The notes below the pieces were generated by a model. That model was not told the DNA's origin and did not search any database. It saw nothing but the letters and a program-made list of their open reading frames with translations. A stretch of 64,000 bases of DNA from an uncultured Phycisphaerales bacterium. Its GTDB lineage: Bacteria > Planctomycetota > Phycisphaerae > WQYP01. The stretch is taken from the NCBI GenBank assembly GCA_903845195.1, contig CAIMWO010000019.1:56277-120276 (forward strand), read 5' to 3'. Positions 18,500-56,402 of the stretch are shown one piece after another (the stretch's first letter is position 1; each line of letters opens with the position of its first letter). The position numbers and the translations under genes are program-made.

Positions 18500-18632
18500 A
18501 CTTCTCGCTGTCTTGAGTACTCCGGTAACTATGTAATGAAAACAGCCCGCCCCAGGCGGGCCGCCAACAAAGACCCCCCTTGGTGCCTTGGTGTCTTGGT
18601 GGTGAAAACTCCCCCCGCCTCGCGCGCAAAAA

Positions 18633-23799: not shown

Positions 23800-24432
23800 T
23801 TTTTCCTCGTTTCTTTGCCGCCATCCCGCATCGCAATCCCGCTTTATCTAAAAAACAGGATCACAACCCCGGCAACAGCAGCCGTCGCGCCTCCACGGCG
23901 CCTAACCTAACTCTTTGTCATTTCAATAATTTGTGCGTTACATCAAGATTCCGTGTGCCTGCATCTCACCGACACATGCAACACCACATTCGCCCCGCAC
24001 AAGGCCGCCCGCCGCAGACCGCAGCAAGCATATTAGAGGATGACCCAACCAACTTCATAAACTAAACACCTACTATTCCTATCAAAAAAGTAGGATATCG
24101 GCGACCCAGCCCCTTGTCAACATCCTCTTATTCGAAAACTCCCTCCGCCGGAGACCATCAAATTCCCCACAGGTCGAACCCCTCCCTCACAAGAAATCTC
24201 AAAACGGAGGGATCCGCCGATGAACGCCGAGAAACGCCGATGTCGGACATAATCCAAAAAATATCTGCGTTCATCCGCGTTCATCGGCGGTTTCCCTCGC
24301 CAAGTCTCGAAGCCACGAACCAACACCCACGCCCCAAAAATTTGTGCCCATTTGTGCCCATTTGTGGTCCCGTCCCGTCGTCCCCCCATTCTGAATTCCG
24401 AACTCTGAATTCTGAATTCCGCCCACCCCCGC

Positions 24433-24894
24433 CTACACCGGAAACCCCCGCCCCACTCTCGGCTTTCCCGTCTTCCGCCAGACGATCGCCAAGCACCCCG
24501 CAGCAATTCCTGTGGGAAACCAGAGCGGAAAAGTAATAATCCACCTCTGAAACGGTGTGGTTGTCTCGCGCCACGCAAAACCGCGCAACAGCAACCCCGC
24601 CGTTTGCCAATCAAGAACGAATTGATGACGGTGCGCGCTTACGCGCCAGCCGGGATCCAAGAGGTCGCTATCGGGAAGTAGCAAGCGTTCCGTATACAGC
24701 AAGCTCATGTTTCCGTAACCGACGCGGAAGTACCAACCTTGGAAATCGTCTTCAAGGAGCGAGGCAACCGGAGCTCCCGCACGCCGGATCATGCCGACCA
24801 CTTGCATGTCAACCACATAACTCGCAGCCCACGTCCCCGCGCATAACAACAGCGCGCCCAGAAAAAATCCCCGAATCACCAACCGCCTGCTCAT
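24433..24894 (-). CDS. Membrane protein with a C-terminal RGFPV tail
   Basis: N- and C-terminal TM segments, PLWFP, basic tail. Confidence 0.65.
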   Translation of the reverse strand: MSRRLVIRGFFLGALLLCAGTWAASYVVDMQVVGMIRRAGAPVASLLEDDFQGWYFRVGYGNMSLLYTERLLLPDSDLLDPGWRVSAHRHQFVLDWQTAGLLLRGFAWRETTTPFQRWIITFPLWFPTGIAAGCLAIVWRKTGKPRVGRGFPV

Positions 24895-25090
24895 TCCCCC
24901 ATCCTACCCGCCCCCCAAAAATTTGTGACCATTTGAGCCCATTCGTGGTCCCCTCCCGTCGTCCCCCCATTCTGAATTCCGAACTCTGAATTCTGAATTC
25001 CGCCCCTCCCGCGGCCCACGGCCCACGAATCACGGCCCACGATCCGCCGCCCACTAGCCGCCAACCACCCCCCACCGTTACACTGCCCCC

Positions 25091-26014
25091 ATGAACGATA
25101 CCCCCTTATTAACACCCTTCCCCCGCGTCGCCATCCTCGGCGTCGGTCTCCTCGGCGCCTCCCTCGGCCTCGCACTCAAAAAACGCCAACTCGCCACACG
25201 CGTCCTCGGCGTCGGCCGCGCCAACTCCCCCTCCCTCCAAACCGCCCTCGACCGCCACGCCATCGACGAATCCTTCACCGACCCCGTCGCCGCTTGCCAA
25301 TCCCTCGCCGCCGGCGACCTCATCGTCCTCGCCACCCCCGTCCGCCAATTCCCCGACATGCTCCAGCGCATCGCCCCCCACCTTCCCCCCGGTGTCCTCA
25401 TCACCGACGTCGGCTCCACCAAATCTCAGGTCCTCCAATGGGCCCACGACCTCCTCCCCAACACCGTCCACTTCGTCGGCTCACACCCCATGGCCGGCAG
25501 CGAACAAAAAGGCCCCGCCGCCGCCCGCGACGACCTCTACGAAAACGCAGTCTGCCTCGTCTGCAAAACCCATTCAGAATCCAGCATTCAGAATTCAGAA
25601 TTATCCCCCACCGCTCGCATCACCGCCCTCTGGACCGCCCTCGGCATGCGCGTCATCCCCACCGACGCCGCCACCCACGACCGCTGGGTCGCCACCATCT
25701 CCCATCTCCCCCACGCCCTCGCCGCCGCACTCGTCAACACCGCCGCCGCCGACCCCGCCTCCCTCCAATCCATCGCCGGCGGTTTCCTCGACACTACCCG
25801 CATCGCCGCCGGCGACACCACCATGTGGACCGACATCTTCCTCACCAACCGCCCCGCCGTCCTCGCCGCCATCGACCAGTTCGCCCAACAACTCCAAACC
25901 TTCCGCACCGCCATCGCCAACAACGACGAACCCGCCATCCGAAAATCCCTCGACTCCGCCCGCACCACCCGCCAATCCCTCGCCGACCCGCGCAACAAGA
26001 GGAACTCCGAATGA
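25091..26014 (+). CDS. tyrA: Prephenate/arogenate dehydrogenase
   Basis: GVGLLGAS, DVGSTK, SHPMAGSE, ISHLPH, DTTRIA. Confidence 0.95.
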   Translation: MNDTPLLTPFPRVAILGVGLLGASLGLALKKRQLATRVLGVGRANSPSLQTALDRHAIDESFTDPVAACQSLAAGDLIVLATPVRQFPDMLQRIAPHLPPGVLITDVGSTKSQVLQWAHDLLPNTVHFVGSHPMAGSEQKGPAAARDDLYENAVCLVCKTHSESSIQNSELSPTARITALWTALGMRVIPTDAATHDRWVATISHLPHALAAALVNTAAADPASLQSIAGGFLDTTRIAAGDTTMWTDIFLTNRPAVLAAIDQFAQQLQTFRTAIANNDEPAIRKSLDSARTTRQSLADPRNKRNSE

Positions 26015-26175
26015 CGACGTCACACGATCTTTCAATTGCATTCCTGCTCATCGTCGGCGGCCTGATTTCGGCCATGATGTGCGGCATCGGCCAGATCCTC
26101 TTCTTACTGCTCCGTCGAAAGAAAACTTCGCAAGGCTTTCCGGTCGATCCCCGCGCCAAGGGGAACACCGAATGA
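26011..26175 (+). CDS. Micro membrane protein 1 (54 aa, GFPxD tail)
   Basis: MTTSHDLSIAFLLIVGG...RRKKTSQGFPVDPRAKGNTE; ATGA overlap with tyrA. Confidence 0.75.
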   Translation: MTTSHDLSIAFLLIVGGLISAMMCGIGQILFLLLRRKKTSQGFPVDPRAKGNTE

Positions 26176-26339
26176 CCGAAAATATGACTCCTCTATTACT
26201 GGTCCTCGCCGCCGCCTTTGCGCTGATGGCCCTCATTACCGTGGGCCTCCTGTTCTTCGTGCGATTCTTGCCGCTCTACCGGAAAACGTCGCCGAACGGT
26301 TTTCCGGTCGATCTCCGCGACAAAAGGAACTCCGAATGA
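26172..26339 (+). CDS. Micro membrane protein 2 (55 aa)
   Basis: MTENMTPLLLVL...RKTSPNGFPVDLRDKRNSE; ATGA overlap. Confidence 0.75.
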   Translation: MTENMTPLLLVLAAAFALMALITVGLLFFVRFLPLYRKTSPNGFPVDLRDKRNSE

Positions 26340-26503
26340 TGGTTCAAGTAGTGCCAGTGCGGCTCATCATCGTCCTGTTCTCCTGCGGCTTCCTGCTGGC
26401 CGTCATCGTCGGAATCGGTGCACTCCTCTTCTTCCTCCTCCGTCCCAAAAACCCCTCCCAAGGCTTCCCCCTCGATCCCCGCGACAAAGGGAGTTCCAAC
26501 TGA
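26336..26503 (+). CDS. Micro membrane protein 3 (55 aa)
   Basis: MMVQVVPVRLII...RPKNPSQGFPLDPRDKGSSN (manual translation). Confidence 0.75.
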   Translation: MMVQVVPVRLIIVLFSCGFLLAVIVGIGALLFFLLRPKNPSQGFPLDPRDKGSSN

Positions 26504-26655
26504 TGGGCTTTCTCTTCCTCCTTCTCCTACTCGCCACCGGCTTCTTCCTGGCCGTCCTCCTCGGTGTCGGCCTACTCCTCTTCTTCCAACTCCACCGAAA
26601 AAAAGCCCCCCAAGGCTTCCCCATCGATCTCCACAACCAAGGGAGAACCAAATGA
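26503..26655 (+). CDS. Micro membrane protein 4 (50 aa)
   Basis: MGFLFLLLLL...HRKKAPQGFPIDLHNQGRTK; TGATG overlap. Confidence 0.75.
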   Translation: MGFLFLLLLLATGFFLAVLLGVGLLLFFQLHRKKAPQGFPIDLHNQGRTK

Positions 26656-26801
26656 TGGGCATTCTCGTCGTCCTACTCGCCGCCAGCCTCTTGCTCGCGG
26701 TCCTCGTCGGCATCAGCGTGCTCCTCTACGTCCTGCTCCACCGCAAGCAAGATCCACAAGGCTTCCCCATCGATCTCCACACCAAGAGGAACACCCAATG
26801 A
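26652..26801 (+). CDS. Micro membrane protein 5 (49 aa)
   Basis: MMGILVVLLAA...HRKQDPQGFPIDLHTKRNTQ. Confidence 0.75.
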   Translation: MMGILVVLLAASLLLAVLVGISVLLYVLLHRKQDPQGFPIDLHTKRNTQ

Positions 26802-26958
26802 TCACAACTTCGCCGTCGCATGGCCATGAACACCACCAAGTCACCAAGACACCAAGACACTTATTGTTTTTATCTGAAAAGCTTGGTGTCTTGGTGCCTT
26901 GGTGGTTGAACTCCGTCCTCGTTTCCGGAATGACCCCCGCAATACGCGCGGTGCACTG

Positions 26959-27639
26959 ATGGCCGGCGCCCTCTACATCTGGATCATGCTCGGCTTCTTC
27001 ACCTGCGCCGCCGCCCTCATCCTCCTCATCACCGCCCTGCTCTACCTCGGCCATTGGTACCAGAAAAAAACCACCGGCGCCACCCACGGCTTCCTCGAAA
27101 AACCCCCCGACCCCCCAAAATCTCCTGCCACACCTCGTCAGAAAACTCCAGCGGTTCTTTCCATAGGCATCGAAGCGCACCTTGAAGAAGATTCGATTCG
27201 AAAAGTTCTTACAGAGTTATTTTCGAAACAACGCGTTCGCTCGCACAACGAGCTACTCGAGGAAACAGGTTCGCTGCCTTGGGAAGAAATCGCGGATATT
27301 GAGTTTTCCTTGAGCCATCCTCCGAAGGGCGAATTACAGACGGTTCTCGATTTGACAATGTATCGGCACACGGATCAAGATCTGCATCATCTCAACGTAA
27401 TGATTGCAGGCAATCTGGCGCGCTTGCTCAACTGCCGTGCGTATTGTGATGGCAGCGGGTATGTCAAAGATCTCACGCCATACAGTGGCTTGATGTTTGC
27501 ACCGGATGGCACGTGTTGGCTTGCGGATGACTCGAACACCGATTTCGCCGACGGTACTGGCGGCTCCATCCGGCTGGTGAAACAGCTCGAAATCGAAATT
27601 CCGCCTATGCCCCCCACAGATGAAACACCCGGGAAATGA
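26959..27639 (+). CDS. Hypothetical protein: array-like TM unit fused to a lower-GC globular domain
   Basis: MAGALYIW...QKKTTGATHGF then a composition shift near 27130. Confidence 0.55.
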   Translation: MAGALYIWIMLGFFTCAAALILLITALLYLGHWYQKKTTGATHGFLEKPPDPPKSPATPRQKTPAVLSIGIEAHLEEDSIRKVLTELFSKQRVRSHNELLEETGSLPWEEIADIEFSLSHPPKGELQTVLDLTMYRHTDQDLHHLNVMIAGNLARLLNCRAYCDGSGYVKDLTPYSGLMFAPDGTCWLADDSNTDFADGTGGSIRLVKQLEIEIPPMPPTDETPGK

Positions 27640-27683
27640 GTATGCGAAGTTATAATGACTCGATCTAAGACAAGAGACGAGAG

Positions 27684-28106
27684 ATGCCGACCCTGAAATC
27701 GAAAACCTCCCGCAAACTCCCCACCACCATGGCCGCACTCGTGGCCCTCTTCCCGCCGCGCGCCATCCACGACAACGTCAGCTACGACAACACCCAGGAA
27801 ATCATCGACCACCTGCTGTCCGTACCGCACCGCACCCGCGATCAGGATCTCTACCTCGACACGCTCACCGTATTGCTCGAAGCCTATGAAGATGAGCACG
27901 AAGCCCTCGATCCCGCCGAAGTCTCACCCCTCGAAGCGCTGCGCACGCTCGTCAGCGAACACGCCATGACCCCCACCCACCTCGGCGAAATCCTCGGCGA
28001 CCGCTCGCTGGGCACACGCATCCTCAAGGGCCAACGCGAACTCTCCAAAGCCCACATCCGCGCCCTCGCTGCCCACTTCCACGTCAGCCCGGCGCTCTTC
28101 CTGTAA
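27684..28106 (+). CDS. higA: HigA-like HTH antitoxin (no adjacent toxin)
   Basis: LLEAYEDEH and ILKGQRELSKAHIRALAAHFHVSPALF motifs. Confidence 0.85.
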   Translation: MPTLKSKTSRKLPTTMAALVALFPPRAIHDNVSYDNTQEIIDHLLSVPHRTRDQDLYLDTLTVLLEAYEDEHEALDPAEVSPLEALRTLVSEHAMTPTHLGEILGDRSLGTRILKGQRELSKAHIRALAAHFHVSPALFL

Positions 28107-28116
28107 GGCCCCGCCC

Positions 28117-29190
28117 ATGCATATCCCCGACGGATTCCTCGACCCCAAAACCGCCCTCGCCACCGGCATCCTCGCCGCCGCCGGCCTCGCCGTCGCACTC
28201 CGCCAAACTCACAAAAATCTCCCCCGCAAACAAATCCCCCTCCTCGGCCTCTCCGCCGCCTTCGTCTTCACCGCCCAAATGCTCAACTTCCCCGTCGCCG
28301 GCGGCACCTCCGGCCACCTCATCGGCGCCGTCCTCACCGCCGCCCTCCTCGGCCCCAGTGCCGCCGTCATCGTCATCTCCTGCGTCCTCATCGTCCAATG
28401 CTTTATGTTCGCCGACGGCGGCATCACCACCCTCGGCGCCAACATCTTCAACATGGCCCTCGTCGGCGGCGTCGGCGGCTGGACCCTCTACCACCTCCTC
28501 ACCCGCATCTTCCCCGGCCTCTTCGGCCGCATCCTCGGCGCCACCTTCGCCGCCTGGGCCTCCACCGTCCTGGCCTCCATCGCCTGCGCCGGCCAACTCG
28601 CCGCCTCTGGCACCGTCACCTGGTCCCTCGCCTTCCCCACGATAGCCGGCATCCACGCTCTCATCGGCATCGGCGAAGGACTCATCACCGCACTCGTCCT
28701 CGCCGCCATCGCCCGCACCCGCCCCGACCTCCTCGGCCTCCCACCCGAAACGTGCCCAACAACTCCATCACGGGTGCCATGCCTTACGGGGCAGGGGCCC
28801 GAGGGGGGGCGTCAGGCATGCGTTGACCAGCCCTCTGCCGAAAAATCTTCCACACCTCCCTCTACCTCCACCCCCGCCCCTCAACCCTACGCCTCCCTCC
28901 TCGCCTACGGCCTCCTCATCACCCTCGGCCTGGCCCTCTTCATCTCCCCCCTCGCCTCCACCTGGCCCGACGGCCTCGACCGCGCCGCCCAATCCCTCGG
29001 CTTCCATCACCTCGAATCCACCACCCGCCCCCTTCCCGCCCCCGCCCCCGACTACAAAATCCCCGGCCTCCCCTCCGGCCCCCTCGCCACCTCTCTGACC
29101 GCCGCCCTCGGCTCCCTCCTCGTCTTCACCCTCTCCTACCTCCTCGCCCACTCCCTCACCCGCCAAACCAAATCGAACCCCAAGCATTAA
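28117..29190 (+). CDS. cbiM: Co/Ni ECF substrate component CbiM/NikM fused to a PDGLE domain
   Basis: MHIPDGFL, GTSGHLIG, FADGG, HALIGIGEG, WPDGLD, PDY. Confidence 0.9.
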   Translation: MHIPDGFLDPKTALATGILAAAGLAVALRQTHKNLPRKQIPLLGLSAAFVFTAQMLNFPVAGGTSGHLIGAVLTAALLGPSAAVIVISCVLIVQCFMFADGGITTLGANIFNMALVGGVGGWTLYHLLTRIFPGLFGRILGATFAAWASTVLASIACAGQLAASGTVTWSLAFPTIAGIHALIGIGEGLITALVLAAIARTRPDLLGLPPETCPTTPSRVPCLTGQGPEGGRQACVDQPSAEKSSTPPSTSTPAPQPYASLLAYGLLITLGLALFISPLASTWPDGLDRAAQSLGFHHLESTTRPLPAPAPDYKIPGLPSGPLATSLTAALGSLLVFTLSYLLAHSLTRQTKSNPKH

Positions 29191-29943: not shown

Positions 29944-30210
29944 TACTTGATTGTATCTTATAAGTTACTAACGGGCAACGCAAAAATCTCCCATTCTCCT
30001 ACCCCGACGCCCCCAATCTCATCCCCCACCCCTCTGTGATAATCGAAAATTGCGTCATTGGACATTGCGTCATTCGCCCCCGACACTCCCACACCCCCAA
30101 ACTCCAACACATCTCTTCGTGGTCTTCGCCCCTTCGTGTCTTCGTGTTTACGCCGTCCTCCCAATTCTGAATTCCGAATTCTGAACTCTGAATTCGCCTA
30201 CAATCTCCCC

Positions 30211-31468: not shown

Positions 31469-31930
31469 CCACCTCGCCGTCAGAGATCAGGAATGCTTTG
31501 GTTATCCGCCGCCGCGATGAAGTACCGCAACACCGTTTTCATACCAATCGAATCACCCCAATCGCACATTCACGATGCCCTCCGCAAATGCCGAACATCT
31601 CCGCATCTACTACAACACGGTGAATCTCCGTCCAACCATTGCCTCCCCTCCCCTCACTCACGTAGACCCGTCAAGCTCTCCATCACACACTCAAATCTTC
31701 GTGCGTCCTCCGTGCCCCCCCGTGTTCTCCGTGGTTAAGAACGTTTTCGTGTCTTGGTGTCGTGGTTCAACTCTGAATTCCAAACTCTGAATTCTGAATT
31801 CCGCCACCCCATCTCCCCGCGACCACTTGCCCCACTTCCGTTATAATCCCGCCCATTCCCTTGGCTGACGCCGAAGCGCCCGCCGAATTGAACGAACTTA
31901 ACCAATTCCTTGAATTGAACGAAAGAACCC

Positions 31931-40187: not shown

Positions 40188-40466
40188 ACATCCCAACCCT
40201 TTCGTGCGTCTTCGTGCGCTTCGTGTCTTCGTGGTTCAATTCTCCTCCTCACTCCAACATTTGTGTTCGTTCGTGTTCATTTGTGGCTAATTCACGTCGT
40301 CCAAAATCCCATCAAGAAAACTCTGTGCGTCCTCCGTGTCTCTGAGTCTCTGTGGTGAAAATATCATCCCCTTCGTGGGTCTTCGCATCCTTCGTGCCTT
40401 CGTGGTATCGTCGTCCCCCAACTCTGCATTCTGAACTCTGAATTCTGAATTCAATAAAGGCCTCCC

Positions 40467-55683: not shown

Positions 55684-56402
55684 TCGTACGATTCAGCACT
55701 GGAAAACTCTTCGCCGCCGTGATGCTTCTGGTGGCCCTGTCGCTGGGCGGCTGCGGCAGCGGCGACACCTATGCCGCGCGCGACTTCAACGAACTCATCC
55801 CCCGCATGATGAAGGCCGTCAATCAGGGCTCGCCGCAGGAAGCCGCCGCCAATCTCTTCAACGTCACCAGCGCCGATGAGCGGCGCGACGCCGTCGCCTA
55901 TCTTGAAACCCGCCCCTACGGCCATGCCGAAGCGTACATGAAGGCCTACAAACTGCTCGCCACCGATCCGCACCCGATGGTCCGCGCCCAGGCGATGCGT
56001 GCCCTGGGCAGCTCGCATGATCCTTCCATCGTGAACGTTCTGGTGAAGGGGCTCAATGACTCCGACGTGACCGTCCGCCGCGACGCCTCGATGGCCCTTC
56101 AGTCCACCTATTCCGAAGTGGCCCTCGAATCGATGATCCTGCACCTCAAGGGCGATGAAGACGAGCAGGTACGCACCAACCTTGCGCTGGCGATGGTTCA
56201 GGCACGCAATCAAAAATCCATCCGGGCCCTGATCGACGCGCTCGACGATTCCAATGCCGCCGTGAACTACTGGGCTCACCAGTCGCTCATGGGCCTGACC
56301 CAGCAGGATATCGAACCCAACGGCAAACTCTGGCTCGAGTGGTACCGCAAAACCTATCCCGAACCCGGCACGACCCCAAGCGCCACCACCCGCAGCAAAT
56401 AG
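55680..56402 (+). CDS. HEAT-repeat lipoprotein
   Basis: LGGC lipobox, D.DxxVR repeats, ATGA overlap with murI. Confidence 0.85.
   Translation: MIVRFSTGKLFAAVMLLVALSLGGCGSGDTYAARDFNELIPRMMKAVNQGSPQEAAANLFNVTSADERRDAVAYLETRPYGHAEAYMKAYKLLATDPHPMVRAQAMRALGSSHDPSIVNVLVKGLNDSDVTVRRDASMALQSTYSEVALESMILHLKGDEDEQVRTNLALAMVQARNQKSIRALIDALDDSNAAVNYWAHQSLMGLTQQDIEPNGKLWLEWYRKTYPEPGTTPSATTRSK

Follow-up and report, generated by a model that had tools for sequence, protein, structure and literature searches.

Five probable small membrane-protein genes chained in tandem to tyrA in an uncultured Phycisphaerales bacterium

Directly behind the tyrA gene of an uncultured Phycisphaerales bacterium (assembly GCA_903845195.1, contig CAIMWO010000019.1), five consecutive open reading frames (ORFs) of 49–55 amino acids follow one another on the forward strand, each overlapping the stop codon of the gene before it. 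We consider it probable, with some reserve, that these ORFs (units 1 to 5, hereafter u1–u5) are real, translated paralogues that encode single-pass membrane proteins and that arose by tandem amplification of one tyrA-coupled gene, their tails also serving as RNA. This uncultivated organism comes from freshwater or a lake, and the locus lies in a stretch of 64,000 nucleotides that was analysed as a whole (the window, positions 56,277 to 120,276 of the contig), to which all coordinates below refer. The chain is made of the following features:

25091 to 26014, forward strand: tyrA (prephenate/arogenate dehydrogenase; Pfam PDH_N 5.1e-29, PDH_C 4.3e-23), head of the coupled chain
25982 to 26014, forward strand: last 11 codons of tyrA (ADPRNKRNSE plus stop), which copy the tail of the units and hold a Shine–Dalgarno (SD)-like tract and the ATGA restart for u1
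26011 to 26175, forward strand: u1, 54 amino acids (aa), profile match E 1.1e-26, recorded as P0001 on 13 contigs
26172 to 26339, forward strand: u2, 55 aa, recorded as P0004 on 15 contigs
26336 to 26503, forward strand: u3, 55 aa, recorded as P0022 on 11 contigs
26503 to 26655, forward strand: u4, 50 aa, recorded as P0005 on 11 contigs
26652 to 26801, forward strand: u5, 49 aa, recorded as P0002 on 11 contigs

The head of the array abuts tyrA without a gap, and all five units start with ATG. Each consists of zero to eight N-terminal residues, one hydrophobic helix (best 19-residue Kyte–Doolittle mean 2.31–2.96), a basic cluster and a tail with the consensus x-Q/N-G-F-P-[VIL]-D-[PL]-[RH]-x-[KQ]-x3, the distance from the end of the helix to the stop codon being 17–20 residues. 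In coordinates, hydrophobicity and tail consensus, this agrees with an earlier note on the same DNA, which had described five consecutive ORFs with a single transmembrane segment and a conserved tail. Pairwise nucleotide identity among the units is only 0.52–0.74 (26–48% divergence), which is why Tandem Repeats Finder (TRF) recovers the three youngest copies alone (26386–26802, 2.8 copies at a period of 146, 77% matches). Length differences amount to whole codons in every case, and the most divergent unit, u2, has a 3-codon insertion behind its helix; by the synonymous codons held in common, u1 pairs with u2, while u3 groups with u4 and u5. All five unit proteins are already on record as predicted proteins, on 11–15 public contigs each, along with a variant of u4 that has one substitution (P0024). 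The stretch 25900–27200 is contained in five DNA runs from two studies of freshwater and lake metagenomes: a Logan contig of run X1, which may derive from the source sample itself, covers 25700–27099 with 0 differences, and contig pieces from three runs of the second study likewise show 0 differences where they cover the array. These matching contigs rule out an assembly artefact.

Stop and start codons overlap at all junctions, as ATGA between tyrA and u1, u1 and u2, u2 and u3, and u4 and u5, and as TGATG between u3 and u4, and an SD-like purine tract (GAGG, GGGGA, AGGA or GGAG) precedes each unit ATG by 8–13 nucleotides, so that the linkage proposed earlier, with a ribosome-binding site inside each tail, is borne out. 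SD sites are used by the host genome: its 16S gene (contig C13) ends in a canonical anti-SD, and a core SD motif precedes 31% of 2606 long ORFs, compared with 11% for a control window. Termination followed by reinitiation at ATGA or TGATG overlaps is a known device in bacterial operons; the array resembles it in its overlapping stops and starts and in the SD tract inside the upstream coding end, and departs from the usual case in having six or seven successive overlaps, with near-identical signals multiplied by duplication. The overlaps run from tyrA to u5 and possibly onward, via a frame of 53 codons, to the gene that starts at 26959. A scan of 24800–28200 for sigma-70 consensus sites, a method beyond whose reach planctomycete promoter types lie, detected neither a promoter-like nor a terminator-like site in the array.

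The end of the enzyme gene itself resembles the repeat. NCBIfam prephenate dehydrogenase models match tyrA with E-values down to 3e-68, all under their equivalog cut-offs, and a tyrA match is present in 42 of the 45 genomes of the taxonomic family. Its final 33 nucleotides are identical to the tail of u1 at 26 of 33 positions and to that of u2 at 27 of 33, which falls within the range of the unit tails against one another (21–28 of 33) and upholds the earlier statement that the C-terminus of tyrA is a copy of the repeat tail. The tyrA of the closest relative (genome G004) has a similar end, LLDPRKMKEGT; the tyrA ends of other genera are unrelated. Evidently the repeat has replaced the original end of tyrA, and unequal recombination is the probable route. 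Further upstream, a tandem tract of the heptamer ATTCAGA (4.4 copies, 25572–25602) lies in frame within tyrA, where it is translated as ...SSIQNSELS..., and related GAATTC/AGAATTC tracts occur in the upstream intergenic DNA (24950–25000 and 24114–24536).

Signs of selection were sought in all 10 pairs of units with Nei–Gojobori counts, which are small (in the motif, each pair offers 7.5–9 synonymous sites). In the linker and GFPxD (12 codons around RK-x-QGFPxD), pairs of units differ on average by 0.29/0.15/0.53 at codon positions 1/2/3, and the ratio of nonsynonymous to synonymous change (omega) is 0.08–0.19 in 5 of the 10 pairs; in three saturated pairs it is not computable (proportion of synonymous differences, pS, 0.82–0.97; of nonsynonymous differences, pN, 0.22–0.35). 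The Gly, Phe and Pro of the motif are written differently across the units (GGC/GGT, TTT/TTC, CCG/CCC), and these varied synonymous codons indicate purifying selection at the protein level. In the helix, the corresponding differences are 0.53/0.26/0.44, position 2 varying least: the chemistry of the helix (hydrophobic second positions) is kept while the identity of its residues drifts. For the N-terminus together with the helix, omega amounts to 0.49–1.69. The last 8 codons follow yet another pattern (0.38/0.30/0.21; pS 0–0.39; omega at least about 0.7), in which third positions are the least variable, and hence point to constraint on nucleotides; the most fitting interpretation is that they supply the following gene with its SD and restart signal. 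What had been described as one conserved tail thus falls into two parts, a basic cluster-x-QGFPxD motif conserved as protein and a separate terminal feature conserved as nucleotides. Taken together, this selection pattern is good but not conclusive evidence that the units are genes.

The units have relatives outside the array. A profile built from the units only, compared with 1.84 billion cluster representatives, retrieved three of the units themselves, the protein P0006 (52 aa) and four weaker matches, of which P0007, P0009 and P0010 (48–56 aa) were admitted to the family and P0008 (258 aa) was left out. A second round yielded 18 protein clusters at E ≤ 0.001, with 8000 scored candidates from 5.8 billion proteins; the clusters are 46–56 aa long and without Pfam domains, and those named by their source are labelled 'hypothetical protein'. 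The profile search with the units, which the earlier note had proposed, succeeded in finding a family beyond the array. Among its 20 aligned members (alignment A6), K40, G45 and F46 never vary; G25 is found in 17 of 20, a small residue at column 27 and F or Y at column 31 in 20 of 20, and R38 in 16 of 20. Since some conserved columns lie in the helix, the predicted cytoplasmic half of the helix is conserved too, and the family signature can be written as a helix with AGxG, then LRRK, then P-[RQ]-G-F, with an invariant K-x4-G-F past the helix. The five units match the 20-row profile with E-values of 1e-18 to 1e-22, and with 1.7e-16 to 1.7e-19 in the search of 5.8 billion proteins; as the family profiles contain the units, independent support comes from P0006, P0007, P0009 and P0010, which were found by the units-only profile. 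All five units have the attributes by which the family is defined, namely a length of 46–56 aa, one helix, K-x4-G-F and significant profile similarity.

No family of Pfam, NCBIfam or PADLOC matches the units or the 20 members above cut-off, in keeping with the earlier remark that the type was not a recognised one. The family is found at E ≤ 0.001 in 11 of 401 genomes of the class, among which the genome under study (G000) is the only one with multiple strong copies, and a phylum-wide sample gave weak matches (E about 5e-5) in 3 of 400 other genomes. A profile search of the own genome found no further copy of the unit. Pattern scans of metagenomes with the five units (85 matches) and of a genome collection with the RGF[ED]V group (31 matches) left none confirmed, while no longer protein ending in the unit module was met among the 8000 scored candidates, the latter being weak evidence. 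For the family member P0018, the best ESM Atlas score is 0.79, under the useful range. Neither this family nor such an array was found described in the literature searched, supplementary files apart. This rare, lineage-amplified family of small membrane proteins for which the libraries have no model is a new one.

A census of larger proteins of the own genome for the C-terminal module gave 2 matches outside the units against 1 in the reversed control, and these were treated as chance: one is the ORF 24433–24894 on the reverse strand, ending in RGFPV, and the other an ORF of contig C3 ending in GFPV plus 9 residues. Neither candidate was listed by the profile search of the own genome. The former encodes a 153-aa membrane protein without family whose end reads helix-WRKTGKPRVGRGFPV, a likeness to the unit motif that is within chance.

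The neighbourhood of tyrA was read in 30 of the 42 genomes of the family with a tyrA match. Single coupled units were found in two other genera. In G004, which has the closest tyrA (64% identity), one unit starts with a TTG that overlaps the tyrA stop (TTGA) and ends in KKNARGFDVQPPTKNPPQ; in G042, the order is tyrA, GTGA, one unit (...RGFPMDDRKGSGN), TGATG and the next gene. By these two genomes, the ancestral order was tyrA, one coupled unit and a second small protein. Between the unit and the second small protein of G004, there is also a one-helix ORF of 46 aa (locus L017, 1128–1265, reverse strand) that ends in IVPRRS and may be a decayed or diverged unit. The array is accordingly taken for a lineage-specific amplification in which the unit has apparently been multiplied along with its restart signal. 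In other lineages, the unit overlaps the stop of an elongation factor G (EF-G) gene by ATGA in two metagenome contigs (L046 and L047) and a frame of 334 codons, again by ATGA, in L049 (G266); elsewhere, it stands alone or between ORFs that, judged by eye, resemble initiation factor 2 (IF-2) and RbfA. In L053 and L059, no upstream frame of at least 120 codons overlaps the start of the family member.

Environmental contigs, single and short, give hints that the array changes shape. Record 14 of X4 (222 nucleotides, depth 7.4) fuses letters of u1 to the tail of u2, which would make one unit fewer, and departs from u3 after RPK into unrelated DNA, matching the protein P0023; P0025 is the body of u4 with a different tail, and P0006 is a distinct unit of a relative. 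Such hints of structural variants speak for the expandable cassette array that the earlier note had envisaged. The comparison of copy numbers across the 401 class genomes speaks against it, for it gave five copies in the own genome and more than one in none of the others, and the idea is therefore weakly supported.

At face value, the array might also be a neutral by-product, that is, a small ORF duplicated together with its start signals and either functionless or untranslated, an alternative that we regard as quite unlikely. Several observations weigh against our favoured reading, and some of them would suit neutrality as well. More than one copy is found in only 1 of 401 class genomes, so that the extra copies must be dispensable, being absent from the 400 others. 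Omega is near 1 over the N-terminus and helix, and even in the motif it reaches 0.88 for u3–u4 and 0.42 for u3–u5; the counts are small and the unit pairs non-independent. In this C-rich stretch, open frames are also present in further phases (25392–26339, forward, 315 aa; 26276–26713, reverse, 145 aa), which makes the integrity of the frames weak evidence; the earlier argument from intact frames to selection is thus better carried by the codon-position pattern, which does show signs of selection. Truncated or recombined forms are hinted at by P0023, P0025 and record 14 of X4. Beyond what bears on neutrality, units behind tyrA are patchy even within the family (2 of the 30 loci read, plus G042), neighbours differ among lineages, so that the context names no partner, no RNA run containing 25900–27200 is listed, and the function proposed below is pure inference.

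Against a neutral origin stand the excess of third-position changes in the motif and the conservation of second positions in the helix, as well as the fact that every one of the units has retained its ATG, its SD tract and its overlap despite their divergence. Moreover, the indels are all of whole codons, and the identical sequence recurs in runs of two studies. In a crude neutral simulation, in which each site changed at random with a chance of 20% and each source unit went through 5000 trials, an open frame with its helix was kept in 0.05–0.30 of trials and the GFP triplet in 0.23–0.26, and this low joint retention makes five intact copies unlikely under drift.

Under the reading that we favour, of translated paralogues, the locus would work as follows. 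One small gene, already coupled to the 3' end of tyrA, would have been amplified in tandem. Each unit would be an inner-membrane protein of ~50 aa with a single pass, oriented N-out/C-in by the positive-inside rule, whose helix would offer, in its cytoplasmic half, a conserved A-G-x-G ... F/Y packing face. The basic cluster would act as stop-transfer and be followed by a short cytoplasmic juxtamembrane motif, P/S-Q/R-G-F-P/D/E-V/I/L, while the final ~8 codons of the units and of tyrA would mainly play an RNA role, as SD-like tract and overlapping stop/start. A ribosome ending one cistron would restart on the next, so that the whole chain would be made from the tyrA message, together with TyrA. 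The ribosomal exit tunnel spans about 30–40 residues; with 17–20 residues past the helix, the latter should still be inside the ribosome at termination, and membrane insertion would then be post-translational.

The same geometry bears on another explanation, according to which the units are leader or arrest peptides that act in cis: like MifM, SecM or VemP, each would sense its insertion into the membrane and gate translation of the cistron behind it. An N-terminal helix, a conserved C-terminal motif near a stop that overlaps the next start and Pro-rich residues in this motif are all reminiscent of such peptides. However, the 17–20 residues from helix to stop fall short of the at least ~30–40 required; with the helix inside the ribosome at termination, insertion could not pull on a stalled chain, which makes the arrest mechanism physically implausible. 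Furthermore, what follows downstream is more units and a small membrane protein, not an insertase or translocon component, and some family members stand alone (L053, L059). We therefore hold this explanation to be highly improbable.

As for the function of translated units, we tentatively suggest, by analogy with other small membrane proteins of bacteria, packing of the helix against a partner in the membrane and binding of the GF motif to a cytoplasmic surface, a possibility to which we give somewhat less than even weight. Five diverged helices could then provide more dose, or slightly different partner preferences. A homo-oligomer prediction for u4 with the 20-row alignment (four copies) gave no answer, with a score of 0.02 against a mark of 0.42, and speaks neither for nor against self-association. 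A bolder version, which we deem unlikely, would make the units an undescribed class of bacterial micro-proteins, free-standing 'membrane hooks' (a helix plus cytoplasmic K-x4-GF docking) that ride on housekeeping messages through their stop/start overlaps and recruit or tune a conserved partner in the cytoplasm or membrane, possibly the product of the gene to which they are coupled, such as TyrA; if it were true, the five-copy chain would diversify the helix while holding the docking motif and the restart signal constant.

The earlier note had considered regulators, receptor decoys or toxins. Type I toxin loci such as ldr, ibs and hok encode tandem hydrophobic peptides of ~20–60 aa whose helices diverge quickly, and such toxins are also found as tandem paralogues. 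The units are likewise tandem, small and hydrophobic, with diverged, fast-evolving helices, and their size, single helix and charged C-terminus are those of type I toxins; they could thus be membrane-damaging peptides (type I toxin, holin or bacteriocin-like) and the array a diversified arsenal. Yet type I toxins each have their own promoter and an antisense RNA and are kept silent, whereas the units are chained by restarts to a housekeeping biosynthetic gene, so that a toxin would be made whenever TyrA is. Signals for separate or antisense transcripts were absent from the array in the scan, which was one for the sigma-70 consensus only and found 0 promoter-like and 0 terminator-like sites, and Rfam likewise yielded no family. 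Neither the units nor the 20 members match a toxin family of Pfam, PADLOC or NCBIfam, no immunity or export gene is adjacent, and the conserved part is predicted to be cytoplasmic and is motif-like instead of forming an amphipathic pore face. An arsenal of toxins is accordingly very unlikely, and nothing here favours either a toxin or a decoy.

Closer parallels to our favoured reading exist among small accessory proteins. MgrB, AcrZ, CydX, KdpF and CcoQ/CcoS are presented as small single-pass membrane proteins with accessory or regulatory roles (PMC12648545). Like the MgrB/AcrZ/CydX class, the units have fewer than 60 aa and one transmembrane helix, are missed by family libraries and lie within an operon. 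Unlike this class, whose members are normally single-copy and encoded in the operon of their partner, they form a set of five diverged copies behind the gene of a cytosolic enzyme, and they share a juxtamembrane GF motif and have no sequence relation to that class. Nor are they encoded with a defined membrane complex, as accessory subunits are, since their neighbours are tyrA, the EF-G gene and unrelated genes. The succession of a hydrophobic helix and RRK recalls the VPDSG-CTERM, PEP-CTERM and LPXTG sorting signals, and 3 of the 20 family members have sub-threshold Pfam matches to VPDSG-CTERM (best E 0.0018; cut-off 25 bits). In contrast to sorting signals, the units are free-standing proteins of 49–55 aa without the signature before the helix, and their conserved motif lies past the basic cluster.

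Downstream of u5, three further features occupy the spacer and the next gene:

26798 to 26959, forward strand: open frame of 53 codons bridging u5 (ATGA) to the next gene (TGATG), without helix or relatives
26832 to 26906, no strand assigned: hairpin of 8-base repeats (CACCAAGA) resembling repetitive extragenic palindromic (REP) elements, TRF period 8, a dispersed element of the own genome
26959 to 27639, forward strand: ORF of 226 aa, residues 1–65 a clade-specific small membrane protein, the rest an extension

The earlier note had seen a sixth, degenerate unit starting at 26959. This claim fails, as the ORF belongs to a separate conserved family of small proteins, usually 65–84 aa long, with the pattern MAGAxYIWIM...GHWxxKKxTGAxHGFLELP. 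The copy of the window matches this family (alignment A7) with an E-value of 3.5e-30, is similar to it over residues 1–65 and has the expected place directly behind tyrA or a unit. The family is found in 9 of the 401 class genomes, all of them in taxonomic family f1, that of the window, and in single copy, and its 65–84-aa membrane protein stands directly behind tyrA in 7 of the 30 loci read, including that of the window. When the unit family was compared with it profile to profile, the probability was 5.7%, with only 16 columns aligned; this low value and the existence of a separate family make the 26959 ORF a distinct gene. The same result bears on the converse idea, that the units are decayed 5' fragments (copies of the membrane anchor) of the 26959 gene. 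The two types do share an architecture of helix, basic cluster and x-GF, and the ORF has 30% identity to u1; besides the profile comparison, however, both types occur next to each other, as separate genes, in G004 and G042, and the unit family is found without the 26959 type in other lineages, all of which renders a fragment origin most improbable.

Matches in relatives are confined to residues 1–64 of the 26959 ORF (found in 5 of 41 genomes, the own one among them), and residues ~66–226 have no counterpart in any relative. The G+C fraction is 0.47–0.55 at 27100–27600, against 0.67–0.72 in tyrA, and in an AlphaFold2 model of the whole ORF (mean predicted local distance difference test score, pLDDT, 51.7) the helix alone is confident. 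The ORF gives the impression of a gene fusion, or else of gene capture. For the extension (27130–27639), the nearest ESM Atlas cluster is a free-standing hypothetical protein of ~160 aa (score 0.92), a lead only. The next gene, 27684–28106, encodes a 140-aa protein with a helix-turn-helix-like C-terminus, for which PADLOC gives a match to the N-terminal part of PD-Lambda-2_B (E 7.1e-11); together with the preceding low-G+C stretch, it may form an inserted two-gene module. It is followed, at 28117–29190, by one ORF of 357 aa in which a CbiM permease is fused with a PDGLE/CbiN-like C-terminal domain.

In the spacer, the bridging frame may merely pass ribosomes on, or be due to chance. The hairpin has a 24-bp stem (fold −43.2 kcal/mol, z −5.26), and its 15-mer is found 10 times within the window, where 0.16 matches would be expected; the repeat also occurs at 18579–18601, 30132–30146, 31745–31767 and 40219–40233, and Rfam gave far sub-threshold matches only, on the hairpin. 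A decayed sixth unit in 26802–26958 was considered from the likeness by eye of TTTCCGG..GA.CCCCGC to the unit tail and rejected, the local alignment scores being 16–21 against shuffle means of 15.7–16.3 and maxima of 23–26.

Small membrane proteins are under-annotated, and only a handful of their families are known outside model bacteria. The present locus yields a clean family definition, with a 20-member alignment and an invariant juxtamembrane motif, and it constitutes a natural experiment in which constraint at the level of the protein and constraint at the level of the RNA can be separated on one short tail. It also presents a restart signal that appears to have been multiplied along with its gene, overwriting even the end of the gene of an essential enzyme. 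Should the motif not be a docking site, the locus would still be a useful test case for programs that call small ORFs; should it be one, it would be a new short linear motif in the cell biology of the Planctomycetota.

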